A stretch of DNA of 64,000 bases, taken from NCBI RefSeq assembly GCF_051903065.1, contig NZ_CP178439.1; one strand, written 5' to 3'. Made by a program: the position numbers and the translations under genes. This document shows positions 37,471-38,907 of the stretch, one piece after another. A model generated the notes under the pieces. It did no database searches, had not been told where the DNA came from, and was given only the letters and a program-made list of their open reading frames with translations. Position 1 is the stretch's first letter. Each line of letters starts with the position of its first letter. This stretch comes from Escherichia coli. Lineage in GTDB: Bacteria > Pseudomonadota > Gammaproteobacteria > Enterobacterales > Enterobacteriaceae.

Positions 37471-38907
37471 CTAATCGCTGTATACCAGCGAGTCTAAAAC
37501 ACCTTGTCCACTATGGACCCCTCCCTCTGTCGATTCAGCTGATTTGCTACGAATTAGATATCCAGCAAAACTGTGCTCAGCACTGGAGGGATTGTTATCT
37601 GTCTGCACGGAGAACATTCCAAGTTCGCTTATCAAATCATTCACCTTATGCAACTCCCCTTTACGCACAATCAAGGTGGGCATAGCTCGGGGCTGAGGGT
37701 GTAAACGGCGCATCAGCGACCAGGACTGATATTGTTGTGGAGTGAGTTCCGTCAGTTTTGTCAGGATATCCGCACCAAACAGACAATGCCCCCCGCCTTC
37801 ACCCTGATTTTTGAGAACCCAGGTTTCCGAAGGAGACTCTTTTGCAAGGTTGATACTATCCGGGCTGATGGGTAACATCTCACCCAGTATCGTTTTTGCT
37901 ATTTTAGCTTCCTGCAGTGTTAATCCAAATGCGACAAACTCGTCGTAACCCAATTGCGAGAGCAGCATTTGTACTCGCTTGCTGGTCGCCAGTTGCTGGC
38001 CAACTGTGGCGTTCACTGCAACCCGGTGCTGCTCAATGAATACTCGGGTCGCCATCAGCGCCTGACAACACTCCTGCTCATCGATATTGAATGCTTCATA
38101 ATCAGAATACTGATATCCGGCACGTAAGTAGACGGTATCAAGTGGGCCTACACCCTCGAGAATGAGCCTGTTGTCGGCGCCTGTACTCAATTGATTATGC
38201 AGTTCACGAAAAGTCCTGCGATGCGTTTCGATTCCTTTTTGCTGGAGGGCGAGCTCAAGCAAGTGTTGATCAAACACATTATTTTCATTCTCCTGCACAA
38301 TCATCAGGAACCTGGCAGGGCCGGGGTCTCCGAACTCCTGCTTAATTCTGCAAGTTGCCTGACAAATCGCTGCTGATAACCCTTCGATCGCTTGATTGTC
38401 GACAAGCGCCCCTGTTGCCTGATTCGATAAATCAGAAAAGACAGCGGGATATTGCCGTTGTAGATAGTGATGCAGATCATGTATCCGCTGACCAAACGGC
38501 CCCATTCCTGCAGCTATACCATTGAACTCTATAAGCCTGAACCCATCACGATTATCATCCATAAAGTCGCTACGCATAATGAGTAATGGTAATCGAGGAG
38601 CATGCCTTGATGATGAATGGATTTGTTGATGCATGTTCAGGAGGGCTGAAAAGAAGGCATTCCCGGCCTTGATGGGATAAATCGCAGAGTACAAAAAATC
38701 ATGATCCTCAGAAACTGAATAGATTAATTTGCTGAGTATTCCTGTTGCATTCTTTAAGTACTGATAGGATTTACGGCTGATAGGTGTTGGTGTCAGGGTA
38801 AACGGGGTATGCACTGCGGAATACGACGATTCCTTGAAAGCAACACCATGAGTTAAGGCCCATTCGACGGCATCATCCTTGAGCTTCTGAACATCAAGAG
38901 TACTCAT
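37471..38907 (-). CDS. Eukaryotic-type glutathione synthetase homologue (ATP-grasp)
   Basis: Collinear motifs versus human GSS by recall: FTL-P, IE-N-I..-G, FDQ, RRTF, VY-R-GY, VLK-Q-EGGG; start taken at the second ATG (RBS AGGGGA). Confidence 0.6.
   Translation of the reverse strand: MSTLDVQKLKDDAVEWALTHGVAFKESSYSAVHTPFTLTPTPISRKSYQYLKNATGILSKLIYSVSEDHDFLYSAIYPIKAGNAFFSALLNMHQQIHSSSRHAPRLPLLIMRSDFMDDNRDGFRLIEFNGIAAGMGPFGQRIHDLHHYLQRQYPAVFSDLSNQATGALVDNQAIEGLSAAICQATCRIKQEFGDPGPARFLMIVQENENNVFDQHLLELALQQKGIETHRRTFRELHNQLSTGADNRLILEGVGPLDTVYLRAGYQYSDYEAFNIDEQECCQALMATRVFIEQHRVAVNATVGQQLATSKRVQMLLSQLGYDEFVAFGLTLQEAKIAKTILGEMLPISPDSINLAKESPSETWVLKNQGEGGGHCLFGADILTKLTELTPQQYQSWSLMRRLHPQPRAMPTLIVRKGELHKVNDLISELGMFSVQTDNNPSSAEHSFAGYLIRSKSAESTEGGVHSGQGVLDSLVYSD

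Follow-up and report, generated by a model that had tools for sequence, protein, structure and literature searches.

We analysed a 64-kb window of Escherichia coli DNA (contig NZ_CP178439.1; by the window we mean the whole stretch of 64,000 nucleotides) and concentrated on one gene on its minus strand, which encodes an intact homologue of the eukaryote-type glutathione synthetase (GS) and is already known and catalogued as a 'gshB' passenger of livestock-associated resistance plasmids. The gene stands among remnants of insertion sequences (ISs) within an uninterrupted open reading frame (ORF) that runs from 38934 to 37471 and counts 487 aa from its first ATG. This first ATG (38934) has no ribosome-binding site ahead of it. 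The second (38907) is preceded, 7 nt upstream, by a Shine-Dalgarno AGGGGA and gives a 478-aa product, which is RefSeq WP_000105383.1 (annotated 'glutathione synthase') and has the same length as the closest homologues. Since Shine-Dalgarno, RefSeq product and homologue length agree, we place the coding sequence at 37471..38907 (minus strand), an assignment also backed by the Pfam and PDB matches, the structural model and the identity to other plasmid copies described below. An earlier note, made from the sequence of this DNA, had given the same coordinates and the same 478 aa. No literature citing the accession was found.

That note had also described the protein as eukaryote-type rather than GshB-type from its collinear motifs, and sequence, profile and fold comparisons all agree with it. 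The protein matches both domains of the eukaryote-type GS family over their full length (PF03917, E 9.7e-61, residues 15-484, model 4-362/363; PF03199, E 4.3e-19), and the query WVLKNQGEGGGHCLFG aligns to human FVLKPQREGGGNNLYG inside full-length alignments. A sequence search of PDB chains returned only eukaryotic GS and its derivatives, namely potato 5oes (E 2.5e-41), human 2hgs (E 8.7e-40), soybean homoglutathione synthetase (hGS) 3kaj, yeast 1m0t, T. brucei 2wyo and the nematode GS-like effectors. TIGR01986 (glut_syn_euk) was the sole NCBIfam match and the bacterial GshB model gave none at E<=1; with eukaryote-type GS as the only profile match, we ruled out bacterial GshB and other ATP-grasp ligase families, so that the best matches do not lie in a different family. 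An AlphaFold2 (AF2) model built from 34 clade members (pLDDT 86.8, pTM 0.89) has the GS fold, a permuted ATP-grasp with a lid domain. Foldseek matched this model to 2hgs (TM 0.84), 3kal (0.87), 5oes (0.82) and 1m0w (0.85), and E. coli GshB was absent from its 50 best PDB fold matches. Glutathionylspermidine synthetase, YjfC/YgiC and trypanothione synthetase were rejected as distant fold matches only (TM ~0.45-0.57). Sequence and predicted structure together thus identify the protein as a clear eukaryote-type GS homologue, not one of the GshB type.

Human GSS (2HGS), potato StGSS1 (5OES) and yeast Gsh2 (1M0W) are collinear with the plasmid protein over their full length, carry both Pfam domains and share its circularly permuted ATP-grasp fold (TM 0.82-0.85), although identity is only 24-28%. 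Unlike them, the plasmid protein is bacterial, and its nearest lineage is linked to arsenic-resistance (ars) islands. Bacterial GshB (TIGR01380) presumably catalyses the same reaction and belongs to the same ATP-grasp superfamily, but has no detectable sequence similarity to the plasmid protein, despite the gene name that the two share in the plasmid literature.

We mapped active-site residues over 83 bacterial clade sequences, using human numbering. The Mg/ATP/catalytic set (E144, N146, E368, K305, K364, the GGG of the G-loop, E425, K452, R125 and R450) is 100% conserved in 83 of 83 sequences, as are five of the seven gamma-Glu-Cys contacts (E214, N216, Q220, R267 and Y270). All of these are present in the plasmid protein and identical in the eukaryotic enzymes, where they serve Mg and ATP binding, catalysis and most contacts with gamma-Glu-Cys (PMC2845819).

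Relatives in arsenic islands and exporter clusters

A search of 5.8 billion proteins brought up a bacterial family to which the plasmid protein belongs. The nearest group is 74-80% identical to it, with the Salmonella chromosomal protein at 80% and the Aeromonas and Yersinia proteins at 77-78%; Shewanella follows at ~65%, and Grimontia, Enterovibrio, Vibrio, Photobacterium, Ferrimonas and Endozoicomonas at ~50-58%. With a best match of 80% identity, no donor species of the plasmid allele was found in the databases searched. Scanning one genome per species gave 190 encoding stretches, 80 of which were fetched and examined as loci, and the clade is confined almost entirely to aquatic Gammaproteobacteria.

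The closest relatives stand in ars islands. In Aeromonas tecta the GS gene ends a single-strand array, arsR-arsR-arsD-arsA-PTP-gapdh-arsJ-acr3-arsC-GS, with a 22-bp gap before GS, and in Shewanella putrefaciens and ANA-3 the order arsP-GS-arsB-arsC lies inside a large ars/arr island. In Salmonella and on a metagenomic contig (L096), GS is divergent from arsR(HTH_20)-arsC(LMWP)-PTP, beside arr-like molybdoenzyme genes and arsRDA. Yersinia has GS followed by an ArsP-type permease and an ArsE-type thioredoxin, and Microbulbifer has arsR-GS-arsP. The commonest neighbour within 5 kb is the ArsP-type permease (20 of 80 loci), and ArsR-type genes are found at 14 of 80. In this census, every locus at least 60% identical to the plasmid protein has such ars-type neighbours. 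A neighbour-joining tree groups the plasmid protein with Aeromonas, Salmonella and Yersinia in the ars-linked clade, with the Shewanella island group as sister. A 'glutathione synthetase' is coloured, though not commented on, where a Shewanella genome paper compares ars/arr regions in a figure (PMC6429310). The GAPDH-ArsJ pair offers an analogy, though only that: like GS, it places a paralogue of a housekeeping enzyme inside ars operons, often beside a permease, and the Aeromonas and Shewanella islands that hold GS contain GAPDH and ArsJ-type genes too.

A distant subclade (48-53% identity; Vibrio, Photobacterium, Aliivibrio, Enterovibrio and Parendozoicomonas) has a different arrangement, a same-strand cluster of gshA, two ATP-binding cassette (ABC) half-transporter genes and GS, often followed by a SigZ-like ECF sigma factor gene. 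The genes overlap or are separated by tiny gaps, and GS is the last or penultimate gene. The cluster was seen at eight loci (L058, L059, L066, L072, L073, L076, L083 and L089; positions ~4.4-11.5 kb in each) and in variant order at a further one (L060). Its gshA product scores 500 bits against TIGR01434 (cut-off 393), and a gshA above the cut-off shares an operon with GS at 9 species loci, which belong to these relatives and not to the plasmid gene. The ABC proteins resemble SmdAB/CydDC-type exporters, and a half-transporter pair lies near GS at 14 of 80 loci. Judged by its gene content, the cluster looks like a thiol synthesis-and-export operon; we found no description of it in the searchable literature. 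The sharing of an operon with gshA is independent evidence that the GS family works on gamma-Glu-Cys.

Several other features of the chromosomal loci were observed. The GS/ars islands adjoin anti-phage systems, which in Salmonella (L006/L007 9595-14522) is a CBASS set of SMODS cyclase, SAVED effector, Cap2-like ThiF/E1-E2 and JAB Cap3, and in Aeromonas tecta (L002 13143-16540) a Hachiman-like pair of HamA and a DEAD/ResIII helicase. Seven Grimontia and Enterovibrio loci (L010, L024, L025, L029, L030, L033 and L035) represent a third type of context, in which GS has no ars neighbours; a GcvA-like LysR regulator is encoded near GS at five of the seven, and the Grimontia hollisae gene and a peptide ABC importer of the SBP_bac_5 family are arranged divergently. 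Two copies of the GS homologue are present in Enterovibrio norvegicus FF-33 (L033 and L066), Shewanella sp. c952 (L067 and L082) and Photobacterium pectinilyticum (L061 and L084), in different contexts in at least the first two. The two from E. norvegicus, ~56% and ~49% identical to the plasmid protein, belong to separate subclades. These observations suggest functional differentiation within the family.

The plasmid fragment and its spread

At the plasmid copy, only a short piece of the ancestral surroundings is left. The 89 bp upstream of the gene (38908..38996, minus strand) are native DNA that contains the Shine-Dalgarno AGGGGA and the greater part of the ancestral intergenic region; from the stop codon through exactly 38996 the DNA is homologous to the Salmonella island, at 79.8% identity. 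In Salmonella and on contig L096 the HTH_20 ArsR-type gene begins ~105 bp upstream of GS on the opposite strand, and this divergent arsR-type gene of the closest relatives has been lost at the plasmid copy. We looked in the retained 89 bp for an ArsR operator or promoter and rejected the idea, having found no convincing inverted repeat or sigma-70 match. The native DNA is followed by 114 bp from the oriIS end of IS1294, an IS91-family element (38997..39110). The same piece abuts an IS91-family transposase gene at another locus (L095), and on its own it matches thousands of plasmids. An IS26 fragment then begins (39111..39411, plus strand), made up of the left inverted repeat (IR) GGCACTGTTGCAAA and the first ~85 codons of tnp26, as judged by reading the sequence, the ORF translation and the IR positions.

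On the other side of the gene lies a unique non-coding 3' flank of 291 bp (37180..37470), which always accompanies the gene and is 100% identical in >300 plasmids. In blastn against all fetched loci it matched plasmid loci only, with no homology to the examined ars islands. Next to it stands a Tn3/Tn21-family transposon-end remnant (37120..37179), consisting of the inner 17 bp of a 38-bp terminal IR (37120-37136) and ~43 bp more, which matches the tnpA-proximal ends of Tn3-family transposons at 82-85%. This remnant is the target into which IS4321 inserted, the 38-bp Tn21-family IR being the usual target of that element. The IS4321/IS5075-type IS110-family element itself (35846..37119, minus strand; transposase 36049-37053) is identified by the RefSeq annotation of identical DNA and by NF033542 (340 bits). 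About 53 bp at one of its ends have been deleted by the adjacent IS26, the boundaries being set by comparison with the pSTM6-275 locus (L001) and with the IS26 end. That IS26 is complete (35026..35845, minus strand; IR positions, tnp26 ORF 35078-35800) and forms the left boundary of the segment.

The gene belongs to a published module, 'ΔrepA-iterons-gshB-ΔIS1294', which was reported in F33:A-:B- and mcr-1 IncN1-IncHI2/ST3 plasmids (PMC6052338, PMC6288184, PMC6739495). Both '114 bp of the oriIS end of IS1294' and an IS4321/IS5075 insertion variant have been described (PMC6052338, PMC6288184). The window matches IncHI2 plasmids that carry the module, and gshB, the 114-bp IS1294 oriIS end and IS26 are all present in it. 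In the published examples (pHN6DS2, pHNFP460-1 and pSTM6-275, and pASSD2-MCR1 and pABWA45_3 for the IS4321/IS5075 variant), the gene is identical to that of the window, with the same 89-bp 5' region, 114-bp IS1294 end and IS26 junction. The window differs from them: ΔrepA and the iterons are gone, their place taken by IS26 and an IS4321 that this IS26 has truncated, and beyond the gene's other flank a shortened IS26 runs into a Klebsiella segment with ramA. The IncN iteron motif (37-bp iterons) was not found anywhere in the 64-kb window. The arrangement is a deletion derivative of the IS4321 variant of the module.

These papers treat the gene as IncN DNA, whereas a Tn3-family IR parts it from the iterons. 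In pSTM6-275, a plasmid without IS4321, an intact 38-bp Tn21-family IR, GGGGTCCGCTTGGAAAACGGAAAATATCCCACGCTAAG (L001 11801-11838), stands between the IncN iterons and the GS fragment, and because it separates the two, the 'IncN1 segment' of the papers is composite. From the sequence comparisons, the name 'gshB' is a misnomer and the 'IncN' origin is inaccurate. A Tn21-family transposon with ars-island cargo was considered as the vehicle, an idea weakened by the finding that only ~60 bp are Tn3-like and the rest of the flank is unique.

The 1.8-kb piece is ~100% identical and full-length in about 300 plasmid records (megablast) from E. coli, Salmonella, Klebsiella and others. Among 5426 complete E. 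coli genomes, 170 carry it. Pigs, poultry, meat, food and farm environments are the source of many of the listed carrier records. Tblastn found 352 plasmid records, of which 309 are full-length and ~43 (about 12%) fall short of 80% of the protein; the truncation classes shown retain 56%, 45% and 23%, with the N-terminal part or most of the protein gone. Divergent homologues turned up in tblastn on only a handful of plasmids, from Vibrio, Photobacterium and Pseudomonas. We also looked for a plasmid context closer to the ancestral one, with arsR still in place, and rejected the idea, as all plasmid copies have the same flanks. The three module papers (PMC6052338, PMC6288184, PMC6739495) contain no functional test of the gene, and no report of a phenotype was found in the literature.

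Function and fate of the plasmid copy

We favour, with a probability of roughly 60%, the view that the gene encodes an active but hitch-hiking accessory GS, which would be a component of ars islands in its native lineage and an orphan on the plasmid. The enzyme would activate the cysteinyl carboxylate of gamma-Glu-Cys with ATP and Mg and join it to glycine, yielding glutathione, and would thus act as a second, accessory GS beside the housekeeping GshB. Where it is native, adjoining arsR, arsC, arsB/acr3 and ArsP-type permeases or sharing an operon with them, it may be regulated by arsenic and would top up the glutathione consumed by glutaredoxin-coupled arsenate reduction (ArsC) and by As(III)-thiol complexes. 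The plasmid remnant, made up of the gene, 89 bp of 5' and ~290 bp of 3' flank between the Tn3-end remnant/IS4321 and the ΔIS1294/IS26 junction, would have been derived from 'ΔrepA-iterons-gshB-ΔIS1294' and carried along by IS26 reshuffling of the multiresistance region. The encoded enzyme is probably still working, and the plasmid copy is probably a passenger without ars partners. No ars homologue was found in the 64-kb window. Because the piece is a 1.8-kb orphan without an ars partner, and because ~12% of plasmid copies are truncated, hitch-hiking is the better explanation than a selected function. The earlier note had supposed a role in modifying thiol pools under metal or oxidative stress. 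This idea gains indirect support from the closest relatives in ars islands and from the distant ones with gshA and an ABC exporter pair; it loses in that the gene had already been annotated and published as 'gshB' (PMC6052338, PMC6288184), that it is an orphan on the plasmid, and that its status as a GS equivalog is not established.

Several observations weigh against an active accessory GS. The protein scores 236.4 bits against TIGR01986, below the curated equivalog cut-off of 329.8, and where eukaryotic GS has the strictly conserved glutathione contacts Ser149 and Ser151 (PMC2845819), 83 of 83 clade sequences have Ala and Gly; it is because of these two findings that the sequence does not establish strict equivalog membership. 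The clade also has GGGHC for the GGGNN of the G-loop (N372H/N373C) and His-Ser-Gly-x-Gly for the Ala-Ala-Gly-x-Ala of the A-loop (A462H/A463S/A466G), the loop reading GG-V/I-H-S-G. Ars-type neighbours are absent from 58 of 80 species loci, so that the arsenic link holds for a subclade and not for the whole family. A simple, insensitive scan of the retained 89 bp found no convincing sigma-70 promoter, and no assay of any member of the bacterial GS clade was found in the searchable literature, where gene and clade turned up in figure legends and annotations only. The first step of glutathione synthesis is normally the limiting one, and an extra GS without extra GshA is an odd way to raise glutathione.

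The invariant changes at the substrate lids (S149A, S151G, N372H/N373C and A462H/A463S/A466G) could mean that the clade is a distinct enzyme rather than a plain GS. By joining another acceptor to gamma-Glu-Cys, or by starting from a modified gamma-glutamyl donor, it might make a gamma-glutamyl thiol other than glutathione for export; or it might be a synthetase switched by thiols, As(III) or oxidants through a cysteine triad. We consider such an enzyme unlikely. The below-cut-off TIGR01986 score and the recurrent exporter neighbours, ArsP-type permeases and ABC half-transporter pairs, would fit a different product, for which the fold offers precedents in soybean hGS and the nematode GS-like effectors (PMC5919673). 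Soybean hGS (3KAL, TM 0.87) and the effectors (5OEU/5OET, TM 0.71-0.81) have the same fold as the plasmid protein, and lid or pocket changes on this scaffold alter their product. The resemblance is limited, however. Soybean hGS has Leu-Pro for Ala-Ala where the plasmid protein has His-Ser, and the glutamate pocket, scrambled in the neofunctionalised nematode effectors, is fully conserved in the plasmid protein apart from S151, with E214, N216, Q220, R267 and Y270 intact.

The A-loop change carries less weight than it might seem to. In GS, the carboxylate of glycine is held by main-chain amides of this loop (PMC2845819), together with R450, which is conserved in the clade. Genuine GS vary at position 462, where Ala is usual and Ser, Ile and His are rare, as is Met, the residue of the T. 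brucei enzyme; at position 463, Ser can occur (PMC2845819); clade 2 GS of nematodes keep their preference for glycine without the Ala-Ala pair (PMC5919673). On the basis of these two papers we downgraded the His-Ser pair as evidence against the use of glycine, since main-chain contacts and natural variation at position 462 make the change not decisive for specificity. A switch by As(III) would draw on a ~10-residue insertion after the S-loop, which has a Cys-Cys pair in 78-79 of 83 sequences; Cys280 and Cys281 together with Cys375 form a clade-specific triad. This triad is found in non-ars members of the clade as well, and by its distribution among the sequences it is not arsenic-specific.

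A second doubt concerns the plasmid copy itself, which might be a silent relic, intact by chance and not transcribed or inactive in Enterobacteriaceae. Only 89 bp of upstream DNA are retained, in which the scan finds no good sigma-70 promoter, IS debris flanks the gene on both sides and truncated variants circulate. The promoter scan is insensitive, however, and the 89 bp, ~80% identical to the complete intergenic region driving the Salmonella homologue, keep the strong Shine-Dalgarno, while the common allele has no inactivating mutations. We think it improbable that the copy is silent; it may well be expressed on the plasmid.

The copy might, on the other hand, be positively selected, supplying glutathione for fosfomycin inactivation by FosA3 or giving tolerance to the arsenicals or metals added to livestock feed. 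Its hosts (E. coli, Salmonella and Klebsiella) already have gshA/gshB and millimolar glutathione, which speaks against such a benefit. The farm and food origin of many listed carriers would suit selection, as would an ORF that is intact and identical in about 300 records and a native 5' region kept after the loss of the repressor gene, from which expression could be constitutive. In F33 and IncHI2 plasmids, the fosA3 module is also a near neighbour (PMC6052338, PMC6288184). Near-identity across plasmids nevertheless indicates recent spread rather than selection; ~12% of copies are truncated, and a few records in 2-3 blast pieces could reflect frameshifts. With no ars gene linked in the window and no phenotype in the literature either, we regard selection of the plasmid copy as very doubtful.

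If the gene is a hitch-hiking accessory GS, as we favour, it matters little in its own right, being a catalogued passenger of IS26-built resistance regions in hosts that already make glutathione. It would serve as a marker of DNA flow from an ars-island source into livestock-associated plasmids, for which the 'gshB' label and 'IncN segment' origin of the plasmid papers are misleading. The family behind it has a modest value too: it spans about 190 bacterial species, is linked to ars islands or to the gshA-ABC exporter operon and has unusual invariant active-site changes. Through it, bacteria may use a eukaryote-type GS either to boost glutathione inducibly under stress or to make another thiol. 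Were the clade a distinct enzyme, it would point to an uncharacterised stress-thiol pathway, one copy of which circulates on mcr-1/fosA3 plasmids. To our knowledge, the searchable literature describes neither the affiliation with ars islands nor the Vibrionaceae operon nor the active-site changes specific to the clade; all three are properties of the family, not of the window.

Neighbouring sequence in the window

Eight complete IS26 copies (starts 849, 18780, 25590, 29956, 33026, 35026, 46032 and 53318) and the fragment at 39111 make the 64-kb window an extreme IS26 mosaic, and for this reason its gene order is recent and unstable. The IS26 fragment is joined to a Klebsiella-type segment that contains ramA (39941-40282; NF012144, 226 bits against a cut-off of 180) and, at the position assigned to romA in the earlier note, the C-terminal fragment of a metallo-beta-lactamase (MBL)-fold protein (40313-40702; Pfam Lactamase_B_2). 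The IS110-family element, the IS26 fragment and ramA had all been recognized in the earlier note, together with a putative romA at the place of the MBL-fold fragment; the 114-bp IS1294 end between gene and IS26 and the Tn3-family terminal-repeat remnant between gene and IS4321 had been missed. Across the junction runs a chimeric 255-aa ORF (39156-39923, plus strand), in which the N-terminus of the IS26 transposase is fused in frame to Klebsiella-derived sequence, diverging after HMDE. At the corresponding place of an identical plasmid, the RefSeq annotation has a DUF1158 protein. The chimeric ORF is an artefact of IS26 truncation, not a gene.

Two further features lie beyond the ramA segment. 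An 81-aa C-terminal fragment of an AraC-family regulator (40889-41134, plus strand), with a YdeO/GadX/HilD-like HTH, sits inside an AT-rich stretch (~40750-41250, GC 33%) next to the ramA segment and is apparently a truncated relic as well. At 42539-44440 (minus strand) lies the gene for an AAA-family ATPase of 633 aa that contains an acidic low-complexity insert. The protein weakly resembles the retron Eco8 effector at its N-terminus only (NF038234, E 3e-7, well under the cut-off). Its gene adjoins a 'peptidase M14' gene in matching plasmids, and it could be an OLD/Gabija-like defence ATPase of the IncHI2 backbone.

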